Made by a program: the position numbers and the translations under genes | Shown: positions 1,462-63,025 of the stretch, in pieces | Layout: each line of letters starts with the position of its first letter | How positions within the stretch are numbered: the stretch's first letter is position 1 | Notes under the pieces: model-generated | What the model was told of the DNA's origin: nothing | The model's database searches: none | The model's input: only the letters and a program-made list of their open reading frames with translations | Assembly: GCA_038063735.1 (NCBI GenBank) | Contig: JBBTUN010000004.1 | Span: 190,921-254,920 of the forward strand | Direction of reading: 5' to 3' | Length of the DNA stretch: 64,000 nucleotides | Source: Patescibacteria group bacterium | GTDB lineage: Bacteria; Patescibacteriota; Microgenomatia; Curtissbacterales; GWA2-41-24

Positions 1462-2556
1462 TCAAGCCACCCATTCAAAGTTAAAGAATCTGATAAGCAG
1501 TAGAGATTGGAACAGTATTGCCAAAAAAAGGTATAAATATAGAAAAGTCTTGCGTTTGGCCAAGAAATCTGCAAAGGGGATAAACAAAGGGAAAGCTGCA
1601 AGTATCTCCCTTAAGCTTGCCAAGTAGGTACCTGATGAAAGCGGAATTAAAATTAACAGCATACTATAAATCCACATAGGCTTATTTATCTTTTTAAATG
1701 ATAAGACACCTAAAAATGCGGTAAACGGAATAACCGCTACTTGGAGAAAGTTAATTGGTGGTGGTTTAACGGGGCCAAAAACTTGTCTTACAACTTCCGC
1801 TGAATCGAGCATAAGCTTTGGAAACGAATGCAGGCCAATTTGTCTTCCCCATCCGGCCGTCTGATCTGTCCAGAATAGAGTGAAATCCCCAAAAGCCAAA
1901 AAGAGATATAAAGCATAAAAAACCAAACCAAGAGGTGAAACCAAAAGCGTCCACCAGTATTTTTTCAAACTAGGAAATCCCCCTTGTGCAATTTTTAAAG
2001 CAAGGTAAAAAGTTAAAACTATACCTACAGGTCTCGTGGCGCTAGCCAAAGCAGCCACAAAAGCAGCAAAACCTATATATTTCTTTTCGGTTAGTATAAA
2101 AGTAAGCGCTGTAAGTGGTAAAAAGAGCGGTTCAGAAAATGTGCCCAAGAGTAAGAAGCTGGAAGGGAAAGCTAAAAAAATTAAAAGAACCTGCTCTTTA
2201 ATTCTAGAGTAGCCAAGAATGCTTACAAGACGGCCCAATAGTATTACGAAAAGAAAAGTAAAAAGACTCGCAACTATTTTTGCAACGACAGGGCTTGAAC
2301 CTAATACCCTGATGGTAAGTGGCCATAGTGGGAAAAATGCTGCGTTTTCTCCCACATATCCATTTTTTGCAATAGCCATGTAATGAGCAGTATCCGCATT
2401 ATTAGTCCAAATAAGCGTAAATCTTTGAGTTAATGTCACACTCGAAAGCACTTCATTAGGGTGGAACATAGACGGGAATACGACTAGCTCGAATAGATGA
2501 ATCGCAACAAACCAACCGATAAATAGGGTGAAAGCAACTCTCATTTGGTAAAACAT
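1462..2556 (-). CDS. Polytopic membrane protein, putative GT-C mannosyltransferase-like (GT87/DUF2029-like)
   Basis: 364-aa multi-TM ORF (FPLWPLTIRVLG-type loop motif), divergent from downstream flippase gene. Confidence 0.35.
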   Translation of the reverse strand: MFYQMRVAFTLFIGWFVAIHLFELVVFPSMFHPNEVLSSVTLTQRFTLIWTNNADTAHYMAIAKNGYVGENAAFFPLWPLTIRVLGSSPVVAKIVASLFTFLFVILLGRLVSILGYSRIKEQVLLIFLAFPSSFLLLGTFSEPLFLPLTALTFILTEKKYIGFAAFVAALASATRPVGIVLTFYLALKIAQGGFPSLKKYWWTLLVSPLGLVFYALYLFLAFGDFTLFWTDQTAGWGRQIGLHSFPKLMLDSAEVVRQVFGPVKPPPINFLQVAVIPFTAFLGVLSFKKINKPMWIYSMLLILIPLSSGTYLASLREILAAFPLFIPFADFLAKRKTFLYLYLFLAILFQSLLLIRFFNFEWVA

Positions 2557-2674
2557 TTTTAGTCTACAAAAATCAACATCAAGAAATCAAATAACGCCTG
2601 CGACAATTTTTTAAAATAGATCTGGTTTTTTTAAGAAGTAGAAACGTTTAAACCTAAATTGTATACTTCAACTT

Positions 2675-3916
2675 ATGATTGTTTATTTTAAAAACCTAAT
2701 TTTTACCGATACGGGTAATGACACTTCCATTGTGATTGTTGGTACGCTGGTTAACATTATAACCGGAGGATTGTTTTTTATAATCGCACCGCGGCTTTTG
2801 GGTCCGGCTGATTTCGGTATATTCTCAACAGTTGTTGGCACAGCTTTACTCGTTATGTCATTTGCTAACTTTGGTATAGATTCAGGTATTTTAAGGTTTG
2901 CTTCGAAAGAAAATTTTGAGGAAGTTTTATCAATAGCCTTTAAATCCTACTTATCATTAAGCATAATAAGTTCTATTATCGGACTAATTTTAGCTCCGGA
3001 AATTGCAAAATTTTTAAACGCCCCACAAATTGCAAATCTATTAAGAATTGCCCTGGTAGGTAACATATTTTTGCTTTTGTCGAATTTTTACATAGCTGCA
3101 CTCCAAGCAAAAAGGGATTTTCTAAAAGCATCTATTGTGAACGGCTCGTCAAATATCCTAAGAATACTTGTTCTTTTTTTAGCCATGATTAGTTTAAAGA
3201 GTTTGGGGATTTACACCATTACGATAATTTTTTTCTTTAGTGCTTTTTTGGCAACGATAACCGGAATGGTCTTACTCCCAATTAATATCGTAAAAACACC
3301 CCAAAAAAGCATCATCAGCTTTCACAAGTTTAACTTTTGGATCGCAATGTCACTTATATTTTCATCTATTCCACTTGAAAATTATTTTTTGGTAAAACTG
3401 GCAGGTCCTGTTGCGGCTGGAATATATGCTGCCCCATTTAAGCTATTAACTTTTGCGTACCAATTTGGCGGAAACTTTTCAAGAGTTTTAGCAACAAGGT
3501 ATTCCTCATTTGACACAAACTCAAAAGCTAGGGAATTTTCTGTAAAAACACTACCGCTTGTAGTAGCTTTTTGTGTTGGACTATTAATCCTTATTCCGCT
3601 GTCCAAACTAATCATAAATACATTCTTTGGACCGGAATATTTAGAGGCTGTACAGGTTTTTCAGATACTCTCAGTGGGGTTTTTATTTTTCTTTGCTTCC
3701 CTAATACCATCAGCAATAATTATTTATTATATGGGTGCATCCAAAATTGCATTTATAATCACTGCCCTCAAATACGGCTTATTTATTGTTTTGCTTTTAA
3801 TTCTTGTTCCAAAATACGATGCACCTGGGGCGGCGATTTCTTTTTCCGCAACAGAATTTGCAGCCTTTTTGTTTATGGCATACTTTGCAATAGCAAAACT
3901 TAGACGCAATGATTAA
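2675..3916 (+). CDS. Wzx-like oligosaccharide flippase / polysaccharide biosynthesis protein (MOP superfamily)
   Basis: 413 aa, ~12 TM helices, N-terminal region resembles RfbX/Wzx family; sits in glycan locus. Confidence 0.55.
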   Translation: MIVYFKNLIFTDTGNDTSIVIVGTLVNIITGGLFFIIAPRLLGPADFGIFSTVVGTALLVMSFANFGIDSGILRFASKENFEEVLSIAFKSYLSLSIISSIIGLILAPEIAKFLNAPQIANLLRIALVGNIFLLLSNFYIAALQAKRDFLKASIVNGSSNILRILVLFLAMISLKSLGIYTITIIFFFSAFLATITGMVLLPINIVKTPQKSIISFHKFNFWIAMSLIFSSIPLENYFLVKLAGPVAAGIYAAPFKLLTFAYQFGGNFSRVLATRYSSFDTNSKAREFSVKTLPLVVAFCVGLLILIPLSKLIINTFFGPEYLEAVQVFQILSVGFLFFFASLIPSAIIIYYMGASKIAFIITALKYGLFIVLLLILVPKYDAPGAAISFSATEFAAFLFMAYFAIAKLRRND

Positions 3917-14366: not shown

Positions 14367-14999
14367 TTGGTAAAGTTAACCGCCATTGTTTATATTAAAT
14401 GTATGAAGGACCGAATGGGCAAAGACCTATCTTCAACTGAAATCGCTGCAAAAGCGGCGAGTCGCATTAATTGGATCTTAATGGATTTTTGGCTGTACAT
14501 TCTCAATCGTCTTGCTTATAACGTACCCTTCCACTTTATTCGCAGATTTTTCTTTGTGATATCTGGAATGAAAATGGGAAAAGATTCGTTTATCCATATG
14601 TGGTCGCGTGTTTATAACCCCGCAGGCATAGAAATCGGCGAAGGCACAATAGTTGGCGACCACGCATTCCTAGACGGCCGTGCACCGCTTATCATTGGAA
14701 ACCATGTCGATATCGCCTCTCAAGTTTTAATTTACAACAGTGAACACGATGTTCATTCCAGCGGATTCGATCCACGAGAAGAGCCTGTGGAAATTGGCGA
14801 CTACGCGTTTATAGGGCCAAGAGTAACGATTTTGCCTGGAGTTAAAATAGGTAGAGGAGCAATAGTTGCAGCCGGCGCAGTTGTAGTAGAAAACGTCGGT
14901 GACTTTGAAATAGTTGGTGGGGTACCCGCCAAAAAAATCGGGGAGAGAAAAAACAAGGATCCGCACTACAAACTTGGCCGCGCCCGTCTTTTTCAATGA
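14367..14999 (+). CDS. Hexapeptide-repeat (left-handed beta-helix) sugar O-acetyltransferase, WcaF/WbbJ-like
   Basis: Repeated [LIV]G-x4 hexapeptide units: IEIGEGTIVGDHAFLDG...VEIGDYAFIGPRVTILPGVKIGRGAIVAAGAVV. Confidence 0.7.
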   Translation: MVKLTAIVYIKCMKDRMGKDLSSTEIAAKAASRINWILMDFWLYILNRLAYNVPFHFIRRFFFVISGMKMGKDSFIHMWSRVYNPAGIEIGEGTIVGDHAFLDGRAPLIIGNHVDIASQVLIYNSEHDVHSSGFDPREEPVEIGDYAFIGPRVTILPGVKIGRGAIVAAGAVVVENVGDFEIVGGVPAKKIGERKNKDPHYKLGRARLFQ

Positions 15000-33573: not shown

Positions 33574-35178
33574 GTGCAAGAACCTGATGGTCTAGAATTT
33601 CCGGATAAACCTTACGATCATTGCGGCTTAGCAGGCGCTGTTGTAAAAAGCGGTCTTAATGCCACAAATATTGCTGTAGAGATGGGCAAAGCTCTCCAGC
33701 ACAGAGGCCAAAACGGCGGGGGAGTTGCCGTAAAAGGTAAAGGCAAGCTCCTAAAAGTTTATAAAAAAGCCAAAGCATTCAACGAAATTTTCAACTCGGT
33801 TGAAGTCGTAGAAGACCATTCACTGCGCGGAGAAATTGCCATTGCCCATCTTAGATATCCAACAGAAGGCTCAAGCCGCCAAAATTGTGACGCACAGCCG
33901 TTTTATGCTTCTTATGGCGGCTGGGAAATTGCTCTTGGCCACAACGGCAGCACAGTTGACGTTAAAAAACACAGGAGGAAGCTTCTTAAATATAATATTA
34001 AAACAGAATCGGATTCAGACTCGGAAATTCTGGCTTGGCTCATCGTTACATCACCTGGTGCAACATGGAAACAAAAAATTTCAGCGGCTCTTGCAGATGT
34101 AAAAGGAGCTTATTCGCTTATTATGGTCACAAACGACGACAAGCTTCTTGCGCTTCGCGACCCATGGGGAATTCGTCCGCTGGTCTGGAGCCAGGACAAT
34201 GGCCACATATTTGTCGCTTCCGAAACCTGCGCTCTGGACAGAATCAATGTTAGGCACAGTCAAAAACTGGAAGCAGGAAAATTGTTGGTCGCAGATAAAG
34301 ACGGTGTCTCAATCTCCGACTGGGCAAAACCTCAAAAGCAAAGTTTTTGTGTTTTTGAAAAGCTATATTTTTCTCACGAAACTTCGTCCTGGGATGGTGT
34401 TATTGGCCAAAATAGGGACAGCCTCGGAGAACAGCTAGCAAAACAAGAAATTGCCTTATACAAATCTGGCAAGATTAAAAAAGAAACCCTAGAAAAAATA
34501 GACTACGTAGTTGCGGTACCAGATACCGCAAGGCCTGGAGCCTTCGCCTTTTACCAGGCGTTAAAAGCAGAACTGCCCGTTATAACCAAATTTAAATACT
34601 TTAGAGGTTTAGTAAAAGAGCGATACGATTATGCAAAAAGAACTTTTATCGAAGACGATCCATATTTAAGAACAAAACATATAGAAAAGAAATTCTTCGT
34701 CTCGCCGGCAATTATAGGTAAATCTATCTACCTGATAGACGACACCGCGGTACGTCTAAACACTTATAAAATCTTGGTTGAGCATTTGCTTAAAATTGGC
34801 GTTCGTGAAATTCACTGCCGTTTTTTAGCGCCAAAGTTTATAAACCCTTGCTTTTTAGGGGTTAATATCGGCTCCCGAGACGAACTTGGAGCGGTCACCA
34901 AAGATAAAGACGGAAACTACAGCGTTCTAACAGAGGACGAGATTAAGAAGATTCTTAAAGTTGAATCTGTCCACTACCTCTCTATGGAAGGCTTGGCGCT
35001 CTCACTTGGTCTTACAAAAGACAAGCTGCAAAAAACCCACTGCACAGGTTGCCTGGATTACAATAATCCGTTTGATATGAGGCCATACGACAGCGAATTC
35101 AAAAAAACTCCTTACGCGAAAGTTACTCCCTCAAAATCTCTTCCAACATACACGCAAGTACAAACACACTTCGGATGA
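33574..35178 (+). CDS. purF: Amidophosphoribosyltransferase-like (class II Ntn glutamine amidotransferase + type I PRTase domain), with 16-aa N-terminal propeptide before the Cys
   Basis: Ntn Cys in DHCGLAGAV; C-terminal PRTase motif IYLIDDTAVRLNT; cysteines in CRF...NPC and HCTGC could form a B. subtilis PurF-type 4Fe-4S site. Confidence 0.5.
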   Translation: MQEPDGLEFPDKPYDHCGLAGAVVKSGLNATNIAVEMGKALQHRGQNGGGVAVKGKGKLLKVYKKAKAFNEIFNSVEVVEDHSLRGEIAIAHLRYPTEGSSRQNCDAQPFYASYGGWEIALGHNGSTVDVKKHRRKLLKYNIKTESDSDSEILAWLIVTSPGATWKQKISAALADVKGAYSLIMVTNDDKLLALRDPWGIRPLVWSQDNGHIFVASETCALDRINVRHSQKLEAGKLLVADKDGVSISDWAKPQKQSFCVFEKLYFSHETSSWDGVIGQNRDSLGEQLAKQEIALYKSGKIKKETLEKIDYVVAVPDTARPGAFAFYQALKAELPVITKFKYFRGLVKERYDYAKRTFIEDDPYLRTKHIEKKFFVSPAIIGKSIYLIDDTAVRLNTYKILVEHLLKIGVREIHCRFLAPKFINPCFLGVNIGSRDELGAVTKDKDGNYSVLTEDEIKKILKVESVHYLSMEGLALSLGLTKDKLQKTHCTGCLDYNNPFDMRPYDSEFKKTPYAKVTPSKSLPTYTQVQTHFG

Positions 35179-40472: not shown

Positions 40473-41675
40473 ATGTGGCAAAAGATTAAAAACATTTACC
40501 ACTACTTGCAGGCGCTCATTTCTGCAATTTATTTTGGTTTTCCCTCAAAAAAATTAACCGTAATTGCCGTAACAGGCACAGACGGCAAAACGACAACCGT
40601 CAACATGATCCACCATATATTCACCGCTGCAGGTAAAAAAGTCTCGATGGTTTCTTCGATTGGTGCCCAAATCGGTGCAAAATCACAGGACACTGGTTAT
40701 CACGTATCTACCCCAAACCCTTGGCAGATTCAGGGTTTATTAAAGAAAGCGACAGACGAAAAATCAGATTATTTTGTGCTCGAAGCCACTTCTCATGGCC
40801 TTGACCAAAACAGACTGGCTTTTATCAAGATTCACACGGCTGTTATAACCAATATCTCCAGCGAGCATCTGGACTATCATAAGAACATCGAAAATTATTC
40901 TCTTGCCAAACTAAAACTGTTTAAAAATTGTCAAACTTCTATACTTAACAGAGACGACACCTATTTTGATGTTTTTAAAAAAGCAGCTCGGGGTAAAATA
41001 ATCACGTATTCGCAAATGCACTCGGCCGACATAAGCCCAAAAAATTTCCCGATCAATCTACAGGTAATAGGCACATACAACCTTGCAAATGCTCTTGCAG
41101 CATCAGCGGTAGCACAAACACTGGACATAAAAAAATCAGTCATCCTAAAATCACTTACCACCTTTAGCGGCATAAAGGGCAGAATGGAAAGCGTAGATTT
41201 GGGCCAAAACTTCACTGCGATTATCGATTTTGCCCATACTCCAAACGCACTCAAAGAAGCCCTTACTTCGCTCAAAAAACAATATCCCAAATCAAAAATA
41301 ACAGCCATGTTTGGGGCAGCTGGCCAAAGAGACAAATCAAAAAGACATACAATGGGTGCTCTCGCTGCAAAACTCGCAGATTTTACAGTTATAACCTCGG
41401 AAGATCCAAGAAGAGAAGATCCTGGAGAAATAGCCTTAGAAATAGCCTCAGGTTTTAGCGAATTTTCCAAAAAAGAAGAGAAAGACTACAAAATCATTTT
41501 AGACCGCAAAGAAGCAATCCACTGTGCGATCGAATCTGTAAAAGACAATGATGTGGTAGTGTTTTTTGGTAAAGGACACGAAAAAAGTATCTGTGTCGGC
41601 AAAACAGAAATTCCCTGGGACGAGTACAAAGAAGTAGAAAAAGCAATTAAAAGGAAGCTAAAAAATGGAAAATAA
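40473..41675 (+). CDS. murE: Mur ligase, UDP-MurNAc-L-Ala-D-Glu--diamino acid ligase (MurE-type, short form)
   Basis: VIAVTGTDGKTTT P-loop, Mur ligase middle and C-terminal domains; position after ftsI. Confidence 0.7.
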   Translation: MWQKIKNIYHYLQALISAIYFGFPSKKLTVIAVTGTDGKTTTVNMIHHIFTAAGKKVSMVSSIGAQIGAKSQDTGYHVSTPNPWQIQGLLKKATDEKSDYFVLEATSHGLDQNRLAFIKIHTAVITNISSEHLDYHKNIENYSLAKLKLFKNCQTSILNRDDTYFDVFKKAARGKIITYSQMHSADISPKNFPINLQVIGTYNLANALAASAVAQTLDIKKSVILKSLTTFSGIKGRMESVDLGQNFTAIIDFAHTPNALKEALTSLKKQYPKSKITAMFGAAGQRDKSKRHTMGALAAKLADFTVITSEDPRREDPGEIALEIASGFSEFSKKEEKDYKIILDRKEAIHCAIESVKDNDVVVFFGKGHEKSICVGKTEIPWDEYKEVEKAIKRKLKNGK

Positions 41676-43659
41676 TAATTTTGCTGCAATAATTCTCGCC
41701 GGCGGTGTCGGCAGGCGAATGAAATCCGCTCGGTCAAAAGTCCTACACCCGATTGGCGATAAACCCATGATTCAAAAAACAGTAGAGGTGGTCAAAAAAG
41801 CAAATCCAGCACAAATTATAGTTGTTGCAAATAAGCACAATTACAAAGAGCTCAAAGCGATTCTAAAAGGTGTTTCTATCGTAGTCCAAGAAAAGCCGCA
41901 AGGAACTGCAGATGCAGCTTTAATTGGCCTGGGTAGCCTTAATGTGAAAACGCACAGCACAGCCATTTTATACGGGGATGATACTGCCTTTTACAAACCC
42001 CAAACCATACTGGCAGTCTTTAAAGCGCATCGCGAGTCGGCATCGTCAATAACATTTGTTACCGTAAAAAAAACTACACCCTACGGTTTAGGCAGAATAG
42101 TAAGAAAAAACGGGGCTCTGGTCGCAATTGTGGAAGAAAAGGACGCATCAGAAAGCCAAAAAAAGATTACGGAGGTAAACGACGGGTTATATTTTTTCAA
42201 TACAAGATTTTTAGAAAAAAATATCCGTCTCCTTGCGCCATCAAGTGCAACAGGCGAGCTATATATCACAGACCTTATCGAGCTTGGACTTAATAAGAAA
42301 GAAAAAGTAGAAACTTTCTTACTCCAAGACGAAGACCAGTGGCATGGAATTAATACCCAAACAGAACTAATAAGAGCAAACCTGAGACTCAACAAACACA
42401 TTCATTTTATGGGTATCTCTGGAGCCGGAGCTGCAGCTTGCGCGGGTATTGCCTCCCAGCTTGGGAATGAAGTGACAGGTTGCGACGTAGAACCAAATTC
42501 ACCCTACATTAATAGAAAAAAAATAAAAGTACTCAAAAATCATGACCAGTCTCACGACAAAGGAATTTCGTGCCTAATTTTATCGCCGGCTGTAGAAAAA
42601 CTGGATTTTGCAAATCCGGAAATCATCGCCGCAAAAAAAGCGGGTATACCCGTTATTAGTTGGCAGCAATTTATGGGAGAAATACTTCAAGAAAACAAAT
42701 TCGTTGTGGCAGTTGCCGGTGGTTATGGAAAGTCTACAACCACAGCGATGATATCCAAAATCCTAATAGATGCAAAACTCGACCCAACATGCCAATTGGG
42801 TGCAAAAGTCCTGGATTGGAACTCAAACTTTATTGTAGGTAAATCTAAATACTTTATCTGTGAAGCAGACGAATACAATGATAATTTTTTAAATTATCAC
42901 CCCTACATCGCAATTGTACTCAATTTAGCCTGGGATCATCCTGACTACTTTAAGACAAAAAACGCACTTTACAACTCGTATGCAAATTTTGTAAATAATA
43001 CGCGCGAAAATGGCCTTTTGATAATAAATCCAAAAAGCTACCAAAAACTGAAAGACAAAATACGAAAAGATATAAAGATTCGCTTCATTGAAGAATTTAA
43101 CATTAGAAACCTAAAAATAATTGGAAACTTTAGAAAAGAAAACGCAAATGCCGCGCTAAGCGTAGCAAAAGCGCTAAATTTGGGCTTAAAAGGCGCCATA
43201 AAGTCAGTCCAGACATTTAACGGTCTTGGTAGAAGATTAGAATTTAAAGGCAAAATCGCAAACACCACGTTTTACGACGATTACGCTGTCCAACCTTATA
43301 CAATCCTAAAAACCGCTAATGCGATTAAAGAAAAATTTAGCAAAAACAGAACATTGTTAGTGTTGGAACCACATACCTATAGTAGAGTAAATAAATACCT
43401 CAAAGAATTTATTCGGGCATTAAGGAACACAAAAGTTGATCGAGTACTAATAACCAACACTTTTGCGGCCAGAGAAAAAGGGGATTCTATCAAGACATCA
43501 AAAAATCTGGTGAAACTTGTTGGTAATAAAGCCACATATACGGGTACAATTCAAAATACAGCTGCCATTATCGGCAGACAACTAAAAGACTATGATTTAG
43601 TTTGTTCCATGGGCGCAGGCGACATCTATAAAATATACGATCTTGTTAAAAATGGATAA
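41665..43659 (+). CDS. murC: Fusion protein: GlmU-type N-terminal UDP-GlcNAc pyrophosphorylase domain (~aa 1-245, no LbH acetyltransferase domain) fused in frame to full-length UDP-N-acetylmuramate--L-alanine ligase MurC (~aa 246-664)
   Basis: N: AAIILAGGVGRRM...KVLHPIGDKPM, QGTADAAL, YGDDT, PYGLGRIVRKNG, EEKDASESQKKITEVNDG, GELYITD. C: HIHFMGISGAGAAACAGIA, NPEIIAAKKAGIPVI, VAVAGGYGKSTTTAM, EADEYN, GLGRRLEF, DDYAVQP, EPHTYSR. No stop between the two parts. Confidence 0.8.
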   Translation: MENNNFAAIILAGGVGRRMKSARSKVLHPIGDKPMIQKTVEVVKKANPAQIIVVANKHNYKELKAILKGVSIVVQEKPQGTADAALIGLGSLNVKTHSTAILYGDDTAFYKPQTILAVFKAHRESASSITFVTVKKTTPYGLGRIVRKNGALVAIVEEKDASESQKKITEVNDGLYFFNTRFLEKNIRLLAPSSATGELYITDLIELGLNKKEKVETFLLQDEDQWHGINTQTELIRANLRLNKHIHFMGISGAGAAACAGIASQLGNEVTGCDVEPNSPYINRKKIKVLKNHDQSHDKGISCLILSPAVEKLDFANPEIIAAKKAGIPVISWQQFMGEILQENKFVVAVAGGYGKSTTTAMISKILIDAKLDPTCQLGAKVLDWNSNFIVGKSKYFICEADEYNDNFLNYHPYIAIVLNLAWDHPDYFKTKNALYNSYANFVNNTRENGLLIINPKSYQKLKDKIRKDIKIRFIEEFNIRNLKIIGNFRKENANAALSVAKALNLGLKGAIKSVQTFNGLGRRLEFKGKIANTTFYDDYAVQPYTILKTANAIKEKFSKNRTLLVLEPHTYSRVNKYLKEFIRALRNTKVDRVLITNTFAAREKGDSIKTSKNLVKLVGNKATYTGTIQNTAAIIGRQLKDYDLVCSMGAGDIYKIYDLVKNG

Positions 43660-44647
43660 ATACGAAAAGTTCAAAGAAATACTTGGTCCACTGCGGGTCT
43701 ACGAAAACGAATTGTTGTCAAAACACACTTATTTTAAAATTGGCGGCCCGGCCAAATTATTTTTTGAAGCAAAAAACATCGATGACCTTCTTCTTGCTCT
43801 TCGTACTGCAACAGATCACAAAATACCGTTTATTGTACTTGGAGCAGGGGCGAATGTGTTAGTGTCCGACGATGGGTTTGGAGGCCTGGTTATAAGAAAC
43901 AGAACAGATGGCGTGAAACTTGTTGGTATCAAGGGCTCACTAGGTAAAGGTGGAACCGGTATAAATAAAGCACTTATCTGGGCAGCATCTGGCACTCTCA
44001 TGAATAGAATTGCACGCTTCACCATCGACCAGGGGTTAGAAGGTTTAGAATTTTTACTGTCCGTTCCGGGTACCGTTGGCGGCGGTATAAAAATTAATTC
44101 CCACTACGAAGTAGAAAAAGGGGAGTTTATCGGCAACGCACTTGTAAGTGCAACTCTTTTTGACCCGAAAAGTGCCCAGGTTAAAAAAGTTGACAACGAC
44201 TACTTCAAATTTGCTTACGACTACTCCAGAATTCAGGAAACAGAAGAAATAGTAGTTGATGCCACTTTTGGTGTCCAGTCGTCAAAGGACAAAGATAATC
44301 TTTGGCAAAAGGCAACAAACGACGTAAAAAGAAGGAACGAAGAACAACCTGTTGGTGTGGCTTGCTCAGGATGCATATTCCAAAACATTTCACCCCAAGA
44401 TGCCCAAAGGCTGGATACTCCAAATTACACAACTTCAACAGGCCACATAATCGAAAGACTTGGTCTAAAAGGAAAAAGAATCGGTGGTGCAGAAATATCG
44501 ACGCGTCATGCTAATTATATCCTTAATACCAAAGAAGCTTCGGCAAAGAATGTCTACGATCTGATAAACTTAATTAAAGATAAAGCTAAAAGCGATTTGG
44601 GGCTCGAACTTAAAGAAGAAATATTCTTAATAGGTAACTTTAACTAA
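43643..44647 (+). CDS. murB: UDP-N-acetylenolpyruvoylglucosamine reductase MurB
   Basis: FAD-binding N-terminus YTYFKIGGPAKLFFEAKNIDDL; ~330 aa. Confidence 0.85.
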   Translation: MLKMDKYEKFKEILGPLRVYENELLSKHTYFKIGGPAKLFFEAKNIDDLLLALRTATDHKIPFIVLGAGANVLVSDDGFGGLVIRNRTDGVKLVGIKGSLGKGGTGINKALIWAASGTLMNRIARFTIDQGLEGLEFLLSVPGTVGGGIKINSHYEVEKGEFIGNALVSATLFDPKSAQVKKVDNDYFKFAYDYSRIQETEEIVVDATFGVQSSKDKDNLWQKATNDVKRRNEEQPVGVACSGCIFQNISPQDAQRLDTPNYTTSTGHIIERLGLKGKRIGGAEISTRHANYILNTKEASAKNVYDLINLIKDKAKSDLGLELKEEIFLIGNFN

Positions 44648-44649
44648 TA

Positions 44650-45906
44650 ATGGCTAAATTCATTGTCAAAGGTCACGCAAAATTGTCCGGCAAAATAGAA
44701 ATTGCCGGTAATAAGAATTCTGTCCTGCCAATCATGGCAGCAGCCCTGCTAACAGACCAAATTAGTGTTCTTGAAAATGTGCCCAATATTTCCGATGTAG
44801 CCGTAATGGCAGACTTGCTGGCCCAGTGCGGTGTAGAAATAATAAATCTTGGTAACTCAAAAATTAGCATTAACCCATCCAAATTAAAAAAATCCGATTT
44901 GCCAAGGGAACTTGCAGAAAAGTTGCGCGCCTCTGTTGTTTTAATTGCGCCCATGGTTGCAAAACTCGGTCACATTAAAATGGGTTATCCCGGCGGAGAT
45001 ATTATTGGTAGACGTCCATTGGATACACACTTTCAGGCGCTTGAGGCATTAGGTGCCAAAATAAAGAAAGAAGAAGACTATTTTGAGGTAACGGCAAGCG
45101 CCTTAAGAGGTGCGGAAATATTTTTAGAAGAAGCGTCCGTTACTGCTACAGAAAACGCTATTATTGCAGCTTCAGTGGCCGACGGGGAAACTGTTATCAA
45201 AAGAGCCGCATCGGAGCCGCATATTGTTGACCTCTGCGAATTTTTAATTAAAATGGGTGCAAAAATCGAAGGAGTTGGTAGCAACGTCTTAAAAATAACT
45301 GGAGTTAAGACTTTTTATGCCACAACGCATTTTATTAGACCGGACCACATAGAAGCAGGAACTTTTGCAATCCTTGCAGCAGTCACTAAAAGCAAATTAG
45401 AAATGAGTCCGGTTATTGGGGAAGACTTGGAAATGATTCTTTTAACACTCAAGAAATTTGGTGTCGATTGCAAAATGGACAAGAACACTCTTACCGTTTC
45501 CGCAACTAAGCTCAGAGCTGTAGAAAAAGTAGTAACAGATGTCTGGCCCGGTTTTCCAACAGACCTAATGGCCCCCATGATAGTTCTTGCAACACAGGCG
45601 GAAGGTGTTACTATTCTTCACGATTGGATGTACGAGTCCCGCATGTTTTTCGTGGACAAGCTGCTTTCTATGGGCGCAAAAGTTGTAATTGCTGACCCAC
45701 ATAGAGTTTTTGTTTACGGCCCAAGTAGTCTCCATGGACAAAGACTGGACACTCCGGATATCAGGGCAGGCATTGCATTGGTAATTGCAGCGCTTGCCGC
45801 CGATGGCAAAAGCGAAATAGACAAAGCAGAGCTAATAGAACGCGGTTACGAAAATATAGTCGAGAGGCTGTCTACACTTGGCGCAAAGATTCAAAGAGTG
45901 AACTAA
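44650..45906 (+). CDS. murA: UDP-N-acetylglucosamine 1-carboxyvinyltransferase MurA
   Basis: MAKFIVKGHAKLSGKIEIAGNKNSVLPIMAAALL N-terminus; 418 aa. Confidence 0.9.
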   Translation: MAKFIVKGHAKLSGKIEIAGNKNSVLPIMAAALLTDQISVLENVPNISDVAVMADLLAQCGVEIINLGNSKISINPSKLKKSDLPRELAEKLRASVVLIAPMVAKLGHIKMGYPGGDIIGRRPLDTHFQALEALGAKIKKEEDYFEVTASALRGAEIFLEEASVTATENAIIAASVADGETVIKRAASEPHIVDLCEFLIKMGAKIEGVGSNVLKITGVKTFYATTHFIRPDHIEAGTFAILAAVTKSKLEMSPVIGEDLEMILLTLKKFGVDCKMDKNTLTVSATKLRAVEKVVTDVWPGFPTDLMAPMIVLATQAEGVTILHDWMYESRMFFVDKLLSMGAKVVIADPHRVFVYGPSSLHGQRLDTPDIRAGIALVIAALAADGKSEIDKAELIERGYENIVERLSTLGAKIQRVN

Positions 45907-48061: not shown

Positions 48062-49261
48062 ATGAACTTGCAGCTTTACGGTGAGGTAAAGAGTTGGAAG
48101 AAGCCCATACATAAATCCAAAATGGCACTCGCCCGTGCCTATTTAAAACTATTATCAAATGTTGAAATAATAGGTATTGCCGGCAGTGTCGGCAAGACCT
48201 TAACCCAGAATGCAGTTCATTCAGTTCTATCCCAAAAATTTCCTACAGTAGTCGGAGAAGAGAATCTCGACCCCACTTTTAGAATTCCCCAGACAATCCT
48301 AAAAACCAAACCATGGCACAAATACATGATTCTGGAGTACGGCATAGAACACCCCGGAGAAATGGATTACTACACACAACTTGTGACTCCAAAATACGCC
48401 TTACTCACCATAATCTCGCCGGAACACACCAGGTATTTTGAAAATATCCAGGGTGTTTTAAATGAAGAGTCCAAAATTATAATAAATCTACCAAAAAGCG
48501 CTTATGCACTACTCAATGCGGACGACCCCTATGCGCACCAAATATCAAAGTTGTCCAAGGCAACAGTAGTCTGGTTTGGCCAAAGAGCCAAAAGGGGAGT
48601 CAAAATTTCTCATTATAAACAAAATCTGCACGGCGCATCCTTTAGAATGCATTATGGTGGAGAGGTAGCGGTTGTCAAATGGAAGGTAATCGGACATCAT
48701 CAGCTTACATCAGCATACGCCGCAGCAACACTAGGTATTTTATCCGGTCTAACTCTAAAGCAAATTGCCAAAGGATTATCAGGGGTAAAATCGCCCGAAC
48801 ACAGGTTAAATTTAAAAATTACCGAGCACGTCAACATTCTGGACGATACCTACAACTCCTCTCCAAAAGCCGCTCTGGAATCAATTAAAACTCTCGTCGA
48901 AGTTGGCAAAGGTAAAAAGAAGGTGGCGGTTTTAGGCGAGATGAGGGATTTGGGAGGCTTGTCAGAATCGGCGCACACAGAACTGGGCGAACAAATTGCC
49001 AAAACTAGAATAAATTATTTGTTAACCGTAGGCAAAATCGCCGGCCTCATATCAATCTCCGCCAAAAAAGCGGGTTTCAAGGGTAAAATTTTAAATGTAA
49101 AAAACACCAAAGAAACACTTGTTAACCTAAAAAGCTACATTTCTCCCAAAGCAGTTTTTTTAATAAAAGGTTCCAGGCACGAGCACCTTGAAAGAATCGT
49201 TTTGGGCCTAACACACAAGTCAACAGCCATTGAATGTTATCACTGCGGAAAGCTAAAATGA
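48062..49261 (+). CDS. murF: Mur ligase, UDP-MurNAc-tripeptide--D-Ala-D-Ala ligase (MurF-type, short form)
   Basis: IIGIAGSVGKTLT P-loop; Mur ligase catalytic and C-terminal domains; precedes mraY as in the canonical dcw order. Confidence 0.7.
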   Translation: MNLQLYGEVKSWKKPIHKSKMALARAYLKLLSNVEIIGIAGSVGKTLTQNAVHSVLSQKFPTVVGEENLDPTFRIPQTILKTKPWHKYMILEYGIEHPGEMDYYTQLVTPKYALLTIISPEHTRYFENIQGVLNEESKIIINLPKSAYALLNADDPYAHQISKLSKATVVWFGQRAKRGVKISHYKQNLHGASFRMHYGGEVAVVKWKVIGHHQLTSAYAAATLGILSGLTLKQIAKGLSGVKSPEHRLNLKITEHVNILDDTYNSSPKAALESIKTLVEVGKGKKKVAVLGEMRDLGGLSESAHTELGEQIAKTRINYLLTVGKIAGLISISAKKAGFKGKILNVKNTKETLVNLKSYISPKAVFLIKGSRHEHLERIVLGLTHKSTAIECYHCGKLK

Positions 49262-59109: not shown

Positions 59110-60513
59110 TTAAATTTCACCTTTTTCTTCGGCCTTTTCAAAATCCTCTATAAGCTTGTCTGAAGTGTATTTCTGTAAACTCGCTGGTAACTCTTCGGGT
59201 GGAATAAACCTCACAGGGACAAATTTGCTTGCAGCTGCAACTGAATTTGACACTGCGCTTCTTATTTCTTTACATTGATCTGAAAGAAACCAACTTAGGT
59301 CTTCTTTTAAAGTTATGTTTTTCTCTTGACCAGTAGCCCCGTATCCCTCGTTAATGTCTACGATACCCAGCACTTTTAATGCCTCCATTTCCTTATGCGC
59401 AGTTGTGTGTGAACAGTTAAGTGTTCCCATAACTTGATTTGTGAGTAGTTCGCCGTTGTTGTCTACAAGAAGTCGAAAAAGGTTTGTTCGGGTCCTAGGA
59501 GCACTGTCAAGAGTCACATCGATGACTAATGCTAGGTCACCTTGGTCAATTTGTCTTCGGCCTGTAGCCACAGAGTGCCCCCTGGCCAAGTTATAAAGCA
59601 GTTGATTTATTCTATCCGGTCTTTCAATAATTGGATCAGAGGACTTATATGATTCTTTGTCCTCCTTAACCCAACGATCTTCCCAAACATTAATCGTCGC
59701 CCTTAGCCTTGCAAGCAGTTTTGCACATCGACCGATAACAACTAAAAATTCCCGCGGGTCCTTAGACTTGTCCCAGTCTATACCGTTAGGTAGAGCATTC
59801 CAGATTTTATCAACGTGTTCTCGCGTAGCAGTTTTGCAAAGCTCCTGCTTTTGCAACCAAGACGCGCTTGTTAGCTGATCTGCTAGCTCATTTTCATCTT
59901 TTTCCTTACTTCTTATTTGGCTAAAAAATAACCTAGAACCAAGATTTCCTGACATTTTCCAGACACGAGGAGGAATCGGTGTAGAACCAGCAAGGAGCAT
60001 AAAGTTATATTCGCCCTTGTAACCTCTTTTGCCGTGTAAACCACTATCAAGTTCTAGTCCCTCACCATCAAGAACCCTGGTTAAAACGCCCAAGTTTTTA
60101 AGAAGATCTTCCTCGCGCTCTCCAAAGATTGTCGCTAAATCACGAATAATCAATACTTTGTTTTTAATTTTAGGCAGTAGATCTATCTCCTCTAGTTTCT
60201 CTTTTTTCACATTAGCTGCGTGAGAAACAAATGAAGCAGGGGTGAAGTTGTCTGTTGTGTAAACCAATTCTGTTAAATCTGAAAACATATTTAAAGTGAT
60301 GGTCTTGCCAGCACTAGGCACGTCGACAAAAACTAACGCAAAAGGGTTTTTAATATCGTTAATTTTCAGCTGTGATATAACACTAAGACCGATCTCGGCA
60401 GGCCTTACGAGATCGGGAAAGTTATTTTCTATTGTCTTAATCCAAGCCGTATATTGGTTTGTATTTTCCATAATAAAAACTCCCGTTTCAGGCGGAAACC
60501 CAAACGGGAGCAT
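59110..60513 (-). CDS. P-loop NTPase, putative mobile-element replication/primase-helicase-associated protein
   Basis: Deviant Walker A VDVPSAGKTITL and Walker B-like KVLIIRDL; 467 aa; adjacent to integrase. Confidence 0.4.
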   Translation of the reverse strand: MLPFGFPPETGVFIMENTNQYTAWIKTIENNFPDLVRPAEIGLSVISQLKINDIKNPFALVFVDVPSAGKTITLNMFSDLTELVYTTDNFTPASFVSHAANVKKEKLEEIDLLPKIKNKVLIIRDLATIFGEREEDLLKNLGVLTRVLDGEGLELDSGLHGKRGYKGEYNFMLLAGSTPIPPRVWKMSGNLGSRLFFSQIRSKEKDENELADQLTSASWLQKQELCKTATREHVDKIWNALPNGIDWDKSKDPREFLVVIGRCAKLLARLRATINVWEDRWVKEDKESYKSSDPIIERPDRINQLLYNLARGHSVATGRRQIDQGDLALVIDVTLDSAPRTRTNLFRLLVDNNGELLTNQVMGTLNCSHTTAHKEMEALKVLGIVDINEGYGATGQEKNITLKEDLSWFLSDQCKEIRSAVSNSVAAASKFVPVRFIPPEELPASLQKYTSDKLIEDFEKAEEKGEI

Positions 60514-60650
60514 TTATCCGCCTGAATTTTCTTAATGAAATCACGACTAAAGGTTAAAGATCAAAGTTGAAAAGTTAAAAAAACGAGGCTAGTTTTTTCT
60601 GTTATATATTACGACTTATAAAAAATGTAGAAAAAATTAGTATATTGAGA

Positions 60651-61073
60651 TCAATTTAAAACACCGATATTTATAGGAGTTAAATATATCTTTTTATTCT
60701 TAGTTTTTAATTTATAGCCAATCATTTTGAGTTTTTTATTTATATTGATAATTAACTGTTTACCATTGTTGACACCTACTTCTTTTTTAATATCCACAAT
60801 GCTCAAGGTTGTATCTCCTGCGATTTTTAAAATAAATTTACTATGTACTTTGTTTAGGCTAGTAAGTTTCAATTTACCCTTAAGGGTGCTTAAAAACAGC
60901 TTTTTTCTTTGTCCCGGGGTGGTTATAGATTCAATGCTTAAGTTTAAAGCTTTAACTTCTTGCTTTAGTAATTCAATGTCGATAGCTAAACTTTCTAGTG
61001 ATAGATTTTTATAGTTAGCTCCGATAGACATCAAAACAGCTATTTGTGCGGACTTGAATGTATTCTTATCCAT
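60651..61073 (-). CDS. Hypothetical protein (Lys-rich, AT-rich gene)
   Basis: 140-aa ORF, no recognised motifs. Confidence 0.25.
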   Translation of the reverse strand: MDKNTFKSAQIAVLMSIGANYKNLSLESLAIDIELLKQEVKALNLSIESITTPGQRKKLFLSTLKGKLKLTSLNKVHSKFILKIAGDTTLSIVDIKKEVGVNNGKQLIININKKLKMIGYKLKTKNKKIYLTPINIGVLN

Positions 61074-61088
61074 ATTTAATCTTGATTT

Positions 61089-61673
61089 TTAAGGCTCATC
61101 GATAGTATCTACAGAATCAAGTGAATCAAGTGCGTCTACCATCTCTTCATAAGTCTCACCTGAATAGTATTTTGCTTTTCTAATGTCACTATTGGCTTGT
61201 TCAATATTATCGTTAGCTTCCTGCAAAGCAGTCTTTAAGTTCCCAACCTGCGTATCTAATTCATCAGCTTCTGATGATATCTCGTCATATTCGTTATACC
61301 AGCCCTTTGCTGTTTTCCCATCATATTCGCCAATCGAACCTAAACCATTTCCTACACTACTTAAAAACCACCAACCAATCAGTAAAGCAATACCGATAAC
61401 AAAAATGAGTACACCCCAGGTGAAACAGATCCCAACAATCTCAAGCGTCTCGTCGCGTTTGTGGACCAGCCAATCTCTAAATCGCCCCTTAGGCACGTTG
61501 CTAATCGTGATGCCAGCCAAAATAATCCAATATACAGGTTTCAAACCATAATTAAATAATAGTGAAAATAATAAAAAAGTGGCCAAAGATAAAAAAGCAA
61601 TCCACTGAAACCAATGGTTAATTGTTTCTTTTTTTGATCGGACAATTGGTCCTGGGTTATCTTTATTATTCAC
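61089..61673 (-). CDS. Hypothetical membrane protein with C-terminal acidic coiled-coil region
   Basis: 3 predicted TM helices then heptad-like region LDTQVGNLKTALQEANDNIEQANSDIRKAK. Confidence 0.3.
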   Translation of the reverse strand: MNNKDNPGPIVRSKKETINHWFQWIAFLSLATFLLFSLLFNYGLKPVYWIILAGITISNVPKGRFRDWLVHKRDETLEIVGICFTWGVLIFVIGIALLIGWWFLSSVGNGLGSIGEYDGKTAKGWYNEYDEISSEADELDTQVGNLKTALQEANDNIEQANSDIRKAKYYSGETYEEMVDALDSLDSVDTIDEP

Positions 61674-61684
61674 TTAATTTACTC

Positions 61685-62317
61685 CTACATACACTTAATC
61701 CCCATTGGGACACCGCCGTTATTCAAGCAATCCATCCTCAAATCGAATTCCAAATCTTTCTGCTTTTTTTCAATGACATCAATTTTAGACTCAAGATCTG
61801 TTGTATCAATACTCTGAACAGGTGTTTCGTAGGTGTAATTATTAGTTGGCTTGCTTTTTTCGGCTAAACCCTGCTCCCTTAAGGATTCAAAGTAAACTAA
61901 ATCTCCCTTATTTAGATCAAGATAAATTGCGAATCCACGAATTGTAGAATTTCTGGATTTTTCAACAAGAAATTTATCAATCTCTGCTTGTGAGTAGTTC
62001 TGCTTGAGTGCGTTCTTCACAAATGGTTCTGTTTTACTCGGATCCAGTTTTTCCCCAAATTTTTCGTACATTTCACTTTTGGATTTGGAGTTAGATGCTG
62101 AATAAACATACGCCGCAACTTTGAATGCCCTATCAGACGGGTCGGGAACTACTAATACGGCTGGAGTGCTATTTTCAGTTACAACCGCTGAAATTGCTTG
62201 ACCGCTCGAGGTTTTGTCGTCTTTTCTCAATATTTGAAATCTCCAAAATACAAAAGCTCCTAGTAATAACGTAATGGCAAGAATAGTGATTGTTTTCATA
62301 ATTCCTTTGATAAACAT
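61685..62317 (-). CDS. Hypothetical secreted or membrane-anchored protein
   Basis: N-terminal signal/TM MKTITILAITLLLGAFVFW; C-terminal CLNNGGVPMGIKCM. Confidence 0.3.
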   Translation of the reverse strand: MFIKGIMKTITILAITLLLGAFVFWRFQILRKDDKTSSGQAISAVVTENSTPAVLVVPDPSDRAFKVAAYVYSASNSKSKSEMYEKFGEKLDPSKTEPFVKNALKQNYSQAEIDKFLVEKSRNSTIRGFAIYLDLNKGDLVYFESLREQGLAEKSKPTNNYTYETPVQSIDTTDLESKIDVIEKKQKDLEFDLRMDCLNNGGVPMGIKCM

Positions 62318-62329
62318 AAAAAGTGACTA

Positions 62330-63025
62330 TCACCAATAATTGGGTGGGGAGCTACCTAGTATTTTCTCCTCACCATAATTTGATGTCACTTTAACTCCAA
62401 AAATTGGGAATTGAGGATTACCCCTATTAATCGTGCATACGCTTCCATTGATTAGATCTGTTCCGTCACCGTTATTGCTTACTACTTGCCCCCCACCAGA
62501 ACTAGATTCGACAAACTTACATTTTTGAAGATTCTTATTGGCATTTATTGTCACAGTATTGCCATCAGTAGTCATACTTGCTTCAAATGTGGAATTATCA
62601 GGAGATGATGTCGGGCTTGGGTTAGGTGATGAACTGCTGCTCGGGGTAGGGCTTGCACTTTGTGTATTATTTGAATCCTGAGAATTGCTGGCTGAGTTTG
62701 AGGTAGCGTTATTGTTGCCGTTACTGGTCTGATTATTGTTTGTCTGGTTATTCGGTGAAATAGATGGGGTTGGAGATTTTTTGTTTAAAATTGGGCTTGA
62801 GGTCGGGCTTGGGTTTGTATTTTGAGTTGATAATCCTGCAACCTCTCCGTTAATGTTCTCAGGCACATTGGTTTCTACAATTTCCTGTTTGTTTTTATGT
62901 GATATAGAGTTGTAAAGAAAAATTCCACTAGGAATCGTGCCGATGCTAATTAGAAATGCAAGGACAAACAGTTTAGCCTTGATTCCCAGTTCAAGGAAAT
63001 AACTTTTTAATTTCAAAATAGACAT
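62330..63025 (-). CDS. Hypothetical secreted protein with long Ser/Asn/Pro/Thr low-complexity linker
   Basis: N-terminal TM/signal, ~100-aa S/N/P/T-rich region, C-terminal Cys-containing domain. Confidence 0.3.
   Translation of the reverse strand: MSILKLKSYFLELGIKAKLFVLAFLISIGTIPSGIFLYNSISHKNKQEIVETNVPENINGEVAGLSTQNTNPSPTSSPILNKKSPTPSISPNNQTNNNQTSNGNNNATSNSASNSQDSNNTQSASPTPSSSSSPNPSPTSSPDNSTFEASMTTDGNTVTINANKNLQKCKFVESSSGGGQVVSNNGDGTDLINGSVCTINRGNPQFPIFGVKVTSNYGEEKILGSSPPNYW

Follow-up and report, generated by a model that had tools for sequence, protein, structure and literature searches.

Why would an enzyme half that makes UDP-N-acetylglucosamine (UDP-GlcNAc) be built into one polypeptide with MurC, the ligase of the first amino-acid step in peptidoglycan synthesis? 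The question is raised by a gene at positions 41665-43659 of a 64,000-nucleotide stretch of contig JBBTUN010000004.1, which comes from a Patescibacteria group bacterium of the Curtissbacterales; this whole stretch is called the window below. The gene joins the uridyltransferase half of GlmU, here GlmU(N), in frame to a complete MurC, and we write it GlmU(N)~MurC, with a tilde for each fusion. We find that it is a real, conserved single gene of ultra-small bacteria of the Curtissbacteria type. NCBI lists exactly this protein under the name 'MAG: sugar phosphate nucleotidyltransferase [Patescibacteria group bacterium]' (MAG, metagenome-assembled genome).

The fused gene and its two halves

One open reading frame (ORF) runs through both domains with no stop between them, as a preliminary description of this DNA had claimed, and the motifs listed there are all in the translation: LAGGVGRRM, KVLHPIGDKPM, YGDDT, GRIVRKNG, GELYITD, HIHFMGISGAGAAA, GKSTTTAM, EADEYN, GRRLEF and EPHTYSR. 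The features of the gene are as follows.

41665..43659, + strand: GlmU(N)~MurC fusion gene, a single uninterrupted ORF of 664 codons plus stop, ATG start
41651..41657, + strand: Shine-Dalgarno-like AAGGAAG, read from the sequence, 7 nucleotides (nt) 5' of the fusion ATG and within the murE 3' end
41665..42393, + strand: GlmU-type N-acetylglucosamine-1-phosphate (GlcNAc-1-P) uridyltransferase domain, residues 1-243 (Pfam, NCBIfam and PDB matches), without the left-handed beta-helix (LbH) acetyltransferase domain
41695..41721, + strand: nucleotide-binding signature LAGGVGRRM, residues 11-19, equivalent by alignment to E. coli GlmU L11-M19
42358..42411, + strand: junction, made of a helix (residues 232-240), four residues and MurC strand beta-1 (residues 245-249, HIHFM)
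42397..43656, + strand: complete MurC, residues 245-664, with N domain 245-343, middle ATPase domain 350-469 and C domain 523-652
42727..42741, + strand: ATP-binding P-loop GKSTT, residues 355-359, invariant in 120 homologs and equivalent to GKTTT of solved MurC structures
43276..43296, + strand: DDYAVQP, residues 538-544, in place of the canonical MurC motif DDY[AG]HHP (alignment to 9ir5 and 1gqq)

A translation start at the conserved internal Met249 was set aside because no Shine-Dalgarno-like sequence precedes that codon. Pfam divides the protein into NTP_transferase (residues 8-242), Mur_ligase (245-343), Mur_ligase_M (350-469) and Mur_ligase_C (523-652). Pfam and NCBIfam agree with the earlier claim that the acetyltransferase half of GlmU has been lost beside a complete MurC, and a Hexapep domain is absent both from this protein and from the precomputed Pfam lists of 120 homologs.

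These homologs come from a search of a 5.8-billion-protein collection, whose clusters derive from NCBI, JGI, ENA and Logan assemblies; it gave 1020 hits, and the homolog statistics in this text are from the best 120. All 120 share the identical Pfam set and are 648-696 residues long; their identity to the query is 50-62% over 97-100% of its length. The fusion, which the preliminary description proposed to look for in related genomes, is present there in more than 120 full-length clusters; where these carry names, they are mostly Candidatus Curtissbacteria. We also scanned species representatives (one genome per species), which gave 77 loci that were sorted by ORF continuity and phmmer. About 25 of these have the order murE, GlmU(N)~MurC, murB, murA with the fusion as a single ORF, under Curtissbacteria or placeholder titles. 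In some cases a contig with a Patescibacteria-type division/cell-wall (dcw) cluster bears the title 'uncultured Gammaproteobacteria bacterium', 'Alphaproteobacteria bacterium' or 'Candidatus Nanoarchaeia archaeon' (GCA_036382695.1). Such titles (loci L006, L011, L014 and others; L060; L003/L075) are probably placeholders or wrong taxonomic labels.

The N-terminal half belongs with GlmU. NCBIfam aligns residues 7-242 to positions 2-236 of the 452-position GlmU model TIGR01173 (186.5 bits, E 8e-55), and positions 240-452 of the model have no counterpart in the fusion protein. At 184.6-186.5 bits the score is about half of the model's equivalog cut-off of 366.85, and so below it. Other NCBIfam families match far more weakly (archaeal GlmU 85 bits, RmlA 67 bits). 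In a PDB search with this part the top matches are all GlmU (2e-34 to 3e-20), followed by RmlA (3e-13). A generic MobA/IspD-like domain, which the preliminary description had held out as the finding that would overturn its assignment, reaches 36-62 bits (IspD and MobA about 42 in NCBIfam) against 186 for GlmU, and the domain is specifically GlmU-like.

The residues expected of a working uridyltransferase are also in place. We aligned the domain to E. coli GlmU (P0ACC7, a sequence identical to RefSeq NP_418186). The equivalents of R18, K25, Q76, G81, T82, Y103, D105, G140, E154, N169, E195, Y197, T199 and N227 occur in 106-120 of the 120 homologs; we take these 14 positions to be the UTP, Mg2+ and GlcNAc-1-P contacts of GlmU structures. 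The signature residues L11, G14, G16, R18 and M19 are kept in 116-118.

The C-terminal half is best described by the murC model TIGR01082 (301.9 bits, against 153.8 for mpl and 79.1 for murD), and a PDB search returns MurC of nine organisms (2e-58 to 1e-29). The motifs GKSTTT, EADEYN, WDHPD, GRRLE and EPH match solved MurCs and are invariant or nearly so in the homologs. The fusion is the only MurC in its dcw cluster, where murE (40473), murF (48062) and murD (51078) are identified separately. DDYAVQP likewise shows little or no variation within the fusion family and is confined to the Curtissbacteria clade; other related loci have DDYAHHP, and two (L005 and L007) have DDYAVHP.

The two halves meet without a linker. 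Junction length is identical in about 95% of the aligned homologs, and both halves have many invariant columns. An AlphaFold2 model, computed on the 120-sequence alignment, has a mean predicted local distance difference test (pLDDT) score of 93.1 and a predicted template modelling (pTM) score of 0.88. In the model, residues 231-250 are at pLDDT 91-94, and the helix at 232-240 leads directly into MurC strand beta-1 (245-249). In Foldseek the MurC part fits onto H. influenzae MurC 1p3d in its substrate-bound form (template modelling score 0.83, root-mean-square deviation 2.5 A over about 470 columns), and the N-terminal part superposes on GlmU. No single chain among the solved structures that Foldseek compared spans both halves.

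Fusion states in related genomes

With GlmU(N) alone as query, an exhaustive HMMER search gives 173 representatives at E <= 1e-30. Its commonest near relatives are the many standalone proteins of about 245-255 residues (37-44% identity). Also present are full-length GlmUs (450-490 residues, 36-40% identity), MurE~GlmU(N) chimeras (650-760 residues), a second, more distant GlmU(N)~MurC (P0205) and a GlmU(N)-HAD protein (P0154). One further protein, P0151 (574 residues, from a JGI metagenome), joins GlmU(N) to a kinase of the APH family, which has the fold of anomeric sugar kinases; this hints that some organisms have a salvage enzyme combining kinase and uridyltransferase.

The same domain has other partners, or none, in sister lineages. 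The order murA, MurE~GlmU(N), then murC or MurC~MurB is found at 27 of the 77 loci, which belong to Woesebacteria and other Microgenomates and include two complete genomes. At L001 the gene after MurE~GlmU(N) is a Mur ligase gene, assigned by phmmer to murC. Roughly 20 loci have a free glmU(N) that adjoins murC (Daviesbacteria, Woykebacteria) or lies 3' of murA. L003 and L004 have the order murE, a standalone glmU(N) of 254 residues, a YfiH-like gene, murC, murB, murA, alr, ddl and murF. Their intervening gene (2438-3121) is annotated Cu-oxidase_4 (YfiH/PgeF-like), and gaps of about 700 bp occur at the equivalent place in Woykebacteria-type loci L040, L041 and L049 and in Daviesbacteria locus L051.

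Some loci show how little separates these states. At L035 (1637-1641) and L038 (10774-10778) glmU(N) and murC lie in one frame with a single stop codon between them; the pair might have split recently, be an intermediate towards fusion or be a candidate for read-through. At L044 and L048 the two genes overlap by 1-4 nt. A stop-free ORF of about 1460 residues that reads MurE~GlmU(N)~MurC~MurB is found on one 7-kb contig only (JACOZU010000032.1, Candidatus Woesebacteria; L033 2280-6848). This four-enzyme ORF has a small tandem duplication, HFTPKAKV, at its GlmU/MurC junction. MurC~MurB single ORFs of 711-762 residues are common in Woesebacteria-type genomes, where they adjoin MurE~GlmU(N); the 2023 survey of Mur chimeras reported MurC-MurB mainly from Verrucomicrobia (Shirakawa et al. 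2023, PMC10214165).

L045, L052, L054, L060, L062-L066, L071 and L080: MurC~MurB single ORFs

At two loci a different N-terminal module is fused in frame to an orthologous MurC (L030 6116-8737 and L031 5309-8068; proteins of 874-920 residues). The module is a sugar-1-phosphate nucleotidyltransferase of the archaeal-GlmU/RmlA-long type plus a HAD hydrolase domain, and the MurC has DDYAVQP and is nested within the Curtissbacteria MurC clade. In neighbour-joining trees of GlmU(N) and MurC, which carry no support values, each fusion state is clade-specific. The trees conflict over L005: that of GlmU(N) groups it with standalone Woykebacteria-type sequences, and that of MurC makes it sister to the Curtissbacteria clade. 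L005/P0205 may stand for an independent second GlmU(N)~MurC fusion, or it may have branched early from the one fusion.

The window around the fusion and the supply of GlcNAc-1-P

The fusion lies in a complete dcw cluster at 35.4-57.8 kb of the window. The gene order is mraZ, rsmH, ftsI, a gene for a DUF5652 protein, one for a 199-residue protein with no assigned family, murE, the fusion, murB, murA, ddl, alr, murF, mraY, murI, murD, ftsW, murG, an ftsQ-like gene, ftsA and ftsZ. The immediate neighbours are these.

40473..41675, + strand: murE (TIGR01085, 379 bits); its stop codon at 41673-41675 overlaps the fusion start by 11 nt
43643-44647, + strand: murB (Pfam MurB_C/FAD_binding_4), directly 3' of the fusion
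44650-45906, + strand: murA (Pfam EPSP_synthase), 3' of murB

The products of murE (400 residues) and murF (48062-49261, 399 residues) are short. They lack the usual N-terminal domain, since the profiles match only from about position 88 (MurE) and 63 (MurF). MurE is equally short (about 395-424 residues) in Curtissbacteria-type loci, and some MurE~GlmU(N) proteins elsewhere retain the N domain.

A GlmU without its acetyltransferase half raises the question of where GlcNAc-1-P comes from. The preliminary description had put forward a hexapeptide ORF at 14367-14999 as the missing acetyltransferase. We reject this candidate: its best matches are WcaF polysaccharide O-acetyltransferases (4e-25), no GlmU family is among its best 25 families, and it lies in a glycosyltransferase and exopolysaccharide cluster. 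An ORF at 33574-35178 (534 residues, class-II amidotransferase domain), just upstream of mraZ, was considered as GlmS and also rejected. It scores 251 bits with purF, below the 350-bit cut-off of that model, against 81 bits with glmS, and its best PDB matches are amidophosphoribosyltransferases. About a dozen Curtissbacteria-type loci also have, 5' of the fusion, a PurF-like ORF with an equally weak match to the GlmS domain. With one of these ORFs WcaF-type and the other PurF-like, the 64-kb window has neither GlmS nor a glucosamine-1-phosphate (GlcN-1-P) acetyltransferase, and no GlmM homolog is found in it or in any of 82 loci.

Related genomes have candidates for these steps. At L078 (11978-15915) the order is murA, glmU(N), a standalone 217-residue ST0452-like LbH acetyltransferase, a HAD protein and glmS; L079 (12715-17497) has the equivalent string, with a full ST0452-like gene in the LbH position. 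Among solved structures, the 217-residue hexapeptide protein is closest to archaeal ST0452, in its acetyltransferase half (9e-31), and to GlmU C-domains. The standalone LbH family has about 900 members, and names among its best 120 include Patescibacteria and Levybacteria. In the LbH and GlmS searches together (best 120 each), the named matches are Levybacteria, Patescibacteria and Woesebacteria, and none of the listed matches lies on a contig equal in length to one that carries the fusion. Woesebacteria-type loci have a two-domain HAD+GNAT protein, or a GNAT-only version of it, between glmS and murE~glmU(N), and P0154 is GlmU(N) fused to the same HAD+GNAT module.

L046 7511-8701 (- strand), L047, L055 and L060: HAD+GNAT protein, full length
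L033, L064, L066, L068, L072 and L073: GNAT-only version

The HAD+GNAT or GNAT protein is a possible GNAT-based replacement for the acetyltransferase half of GlmU. Taken together, the locus patterns suggest that UDP-GlcNAc pathways in Microgenomates are split or remodelled. We found nothing specific in the literature on UDP-GlcNAc metabolism in the Candidate Phyla Radiation/Patescibacteria or on Curtissbacteria.

Elsewhere in the window, positions 1-32000 are a surface-glycan/exopolysaccharide region. It has at least nine glycosyltransferases, two PMT_2 proteins, a Wzy_C-type polymerase/ligase, YfhO, an EamA transporter, a ManC-like GDP-mannose pyrophosphorylase, a priming sugar transferase and DUF4012. 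Several of its ORFs of 360-650 residues have no family match. Five consecutive ORFs (139-466 residues) at 59110-63025 on the minus strand, 3' of a gene for a XerC/D-like recombinase, have no Pfam match.

Origin and function of the fusion, and its relation to known systems

Our reading, to which we give a probability of about three in four, is that GlmU(N)~MurC is a cytoplasmic bifunctional peptidoglycan-precursor enzyme with two independent sites that arose by fusion of neighbouring genes. What we observe are the identities of the domains, their conservation, the synteny and the alternative fusion states; both activities, the route of fusion and its benefit we infer. The N-terminal 243 residues would be a monofunctional GlmU-type uridyltransferase (GlcNAc-1-P + UTP -> UDP-GlcNAc + pyrophosphate). 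The C-terminal 420 residues would be the organism's MurC, possibly with a modified amino-acid pocket, and would carry out UDP-N-acetylmuramic acid (UDP-MurNAc) + L-alanine (L-Ala) + ATP -> UDP-MurNAc-L-Ala. UDP-GlcNAc would leave the first site, pass MurA and MurB and come back as substrate of the second; the fused steps are not consecutive, since these two enzymes act between them. An autonomous uridyltransferase domain with no LbH is plausible because this half of GlmU is autonomous and needs no trimerisation, as stated in the part of PMC10087520 that cites Pompeo et al. 2001, and because there is a monofunctional precedent in Capnocytophaga.

In Microgenomates GlmU is split, and the gene for its N-half has a fixed place in the mur operon beside murE and murC. 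The Curtissbacteria lineage would have lost the stop codon that kept glmU(N) apart from the abutting murC, giving a chimera without a linker, and in Woesebacteria-type lineages the same glmU(N) would have joined murE instead. MurE-fused, MurC-fused and free states are the signature of stop-codon loss between tightly packed, translationally coupled neighbours. Because the same domain is MurE-fused or free in sister lineages, its partner appears to be set by gene adjacency and not by pathway order. As its benefit, the fusion may fix expression at 1:1, give stability and possibly let the protein join a Mur multi-enzyme complex. The fusion is probably functional.

Several points weigh against this reading. 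The MurC half scores slightly below the equivalog cut-off of its model (335.1 bits). The amino acid that it adds could differ from L-Ala, because DDYAVQP sits at what we take to be the L-Ala site, lined in H. influenzae MurC by Y346/H348 at DDY[AG]HHP. GlmS, GlmM, a GlmU-type LbH, HAD-GNAT and an APH kinase are absent from the window and from within 10 kb of Curtissbacteria-type fusions. The tight, length-invariant junction and the high pTM hint at selection specifically for a sugar-1-phosphate nucleotidyltransferase on MurC, as does the second nucleotidyltransferase type at the equivalent position of MurC in L030/L031; adjacency by itself would not lead one to expect this.

A wider proposal, which we consider rather doubtful, is that the alternative pairs MurE~GlmU(N), GlmU(N)~MurC and MurC~MurB, and the one chain that has all four enzymes, trace a real cytoplasmic multi-enzyme assembly that includes the UDP-GlcNAc-forming enzyme, together with a remodelled, GlmM-independent pathway. 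Such an assembly would be unlike any described Mur complex, and the rigid GlmU(N)-MurC interface would be a built-in piece of it. The halves of GlmU would be separate, and the classical acetyltransferase and mutase steps would be taken over by standalone LbH or HAD-GNAT proteins. The interest of the fusion would rise if the alternative fusions do mark a physical precursor-synthesis complex with GlmU in it.

The preliminary description had read the gene as physically coupling UDP-GlcNAc synthesis to the first amino-acid ligation, and we find this unlikely. Coupling could mean a GlmU-MurA-MurB-MurC metabolon whose UDP-sugars do not equilibrate with the cytoplasm, or co-regulation of pathway entry and commitment. 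It would fit the invariant junction without a linker, the confident inter-domain geometry, the retention of the fusion throughout a whole clade and the other nucleotidyltransferase type in frame ahead of MurC in L030/L031. The single MurE~GlmU(N)~MurC~MurB contig, the MurC~MurB genes common in sister lineages and the Mur enzyme complexes that have been proposed (PMC10214165) point the same way. Against this, the fused activities are three steps apart, and MurA and MurB, which act between them, stay separate genes here. In 27 loci the domain has MurE, five steps away, as its partner, and in about 20 it stands alone, so that no particular partner is required. Channelling does not account for comparable non-consecutive chimeras (MurG-MurC, MurC-Ddl) either (PMC10214165).

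The fused steps would become consecutive if the N-domain had turned to MurNAc-1-phosphate and, like MurU, made UDP-MurNAc from scavenged muropeptide sugars. MurC consumes UDP-MurNAc, the organisms depend on hosts and have reduced genomes, upstream UDP-GlcNAc genes were not found near the fusion, and in the relative P0151 GlmU(N) is joined to a kinase of APH type, a fold shared with AmgK. All the same, salvage of this kind is improbable. The GlmU model matches at 8e-55, and MurU is outside the best 25 NCBIfam families (weakest listed E-value 6e-7); MurU in the PDB (4y7t) is unmatched at E <= 0.001. The equivalents of E154 and N169, which in E. coli GlmU presumably bind the hydroxyls of GlcNAc, show little or no variation. 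The de novo route to UDP-MurNAc, murA and murB, lies directly 3' of the fusion. In relatives the orthologous glmU(N) has the canonical UDP-GlcNAc neighbours, glmS and a GlmU/ST0452-like acetyltransferase, and an APH kinase is absent from the window and the 82 loci.

The N-domain might instead be a pseudo-enzyme, a non-catalytic sensor of UDP-GlcNAc or UTP that regulates MurC, as fused nucleotide-sugar-binding domains can act as allosteric modules. We hold this to be highly improbable, given that the catalytic and Mg2+-ligand positions (equivalents of R18, K25, D105 and N227) are conserved across the 120 homologs, that the cluster has no other GlmU-type gene and that standalone orthologs fill the same operon slot in sister lineages. 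An artefact of assembly or gene calling, in which a lost stop codon or a frameshift merged two genes, can be practically dismissed: one sequencing error could mimic the fusion in one genome, because a single in-frame stop is all that parts the two genes in some sister lineages, but the same single ORF with its fixed-length junction recurs in independent clusters, more than 120 of them, as well as in about 25 species-representative genomes.

The consequences reach beyond this gene. GlmU is routinely split in a large uncultivated bacterial class, and metabolic reconstructions may score it there, as absent or as present, on wrong grounds. Annotation names the fused protein 'sugar phosphate nucleotidyltransferase' or 'UDP-N-acetylmuramate--alanine ligase', never both. 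The source of GlcNAc-1-P bears on how far ultra-small bacteria depend on hosts for cell-wall sugars. The two reciprocal forms in sister lineages are a natural experiment on channelling, stoichiometry or mere adjacency.

Both ingredients of the fusion, a uridyltransferase-only GlmU and Mur chimeras, are known. GlmU(N)~MurC and MurE~GlmU(N) are both in public databases, where their names are partial. We found no description of the combination in GlmU(N)~MurC, and searches of the literature for GlmU-MurC or MurE-GlmU returned no use of either term. The 2023 survey of Mur chimeras lists MurE-MurF, MurC-Ddl, MurC-MurB, MurG-MurC, MurD-FtsW and MraY-MurG and does not mention GlmU (Shirakawa et al. 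2023, PMC10214165). This agrees with the preliminary description, which did not recognise the architecture as a described one. The two fusions that the preliminary description gave as known, MurC-Ddl and MurG-MurC, are both in the survey, and the other four were missing from its list. The survey excluded unidentified species, and with them the MAG lineages considered here.

Compared with bifunctional GlmU (E. coli P0ACC7, TIGR01173), the fusion has the same uridyltransferase fold, the signature L-x2-G-x-G-x-R-M...K and the residues of the UTP/Mg2+/GlcNAc-1-P contacts. It differs in that the domain stops where the long helical arm of GlmU begins; the arm is about nine residues, then MurC follows, and the entire LbH GlcN-1-P acetyltransferase and trimerisation domain is gone. 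The archaeal ST0452-type nucleotidyltransferase/acetyltransferase (PDB 2ggo, 5z09) has a related fold, but the fusion domain is closer to bacterial GlmU (186 against 85 bits), and the window has no such LbH partner. Like MurU of the AmgK-MurU salvage pathway (NF045761, PDB 4y7t), the domain would be a sugar-1-phosphate uridylyltransferase of the same broad superfamily that supplies a UDP-sugar to MurC, whereas by sequence it groups with GlmU, and no AmgK-like kinase is found nearby.

A GlmU without the acetyltransferase domain is already known from Capnocytophaga canimorsus, a GlcNAc auxotroph. Its GlmUCc is a monofunctional GlcNAc-1-P uridyltransferase with biochemically demonstrated activity (Renzi et al. 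2015, PMC4358021). By domain content the N-half of the fusion resembles it, but GlmUCc is a free protein in Bacteroidetes and the domain here is covalently joined to MurC. The nearest parallels to that join are the natural Mur chimeras, which are also single ORFs from neighbouring dcw/mur genes and lineage-restricted, some of them without a linker and several non-consecutive. [quoted passage not shown] GlmU(N)~MurC, like its reciprocal MurE~GlmU(N), stands outside the catalogue of these chimeras, and to it adds a new partner, the uridyltransferase half of GlmU, which acts upstream of the Mur steps.

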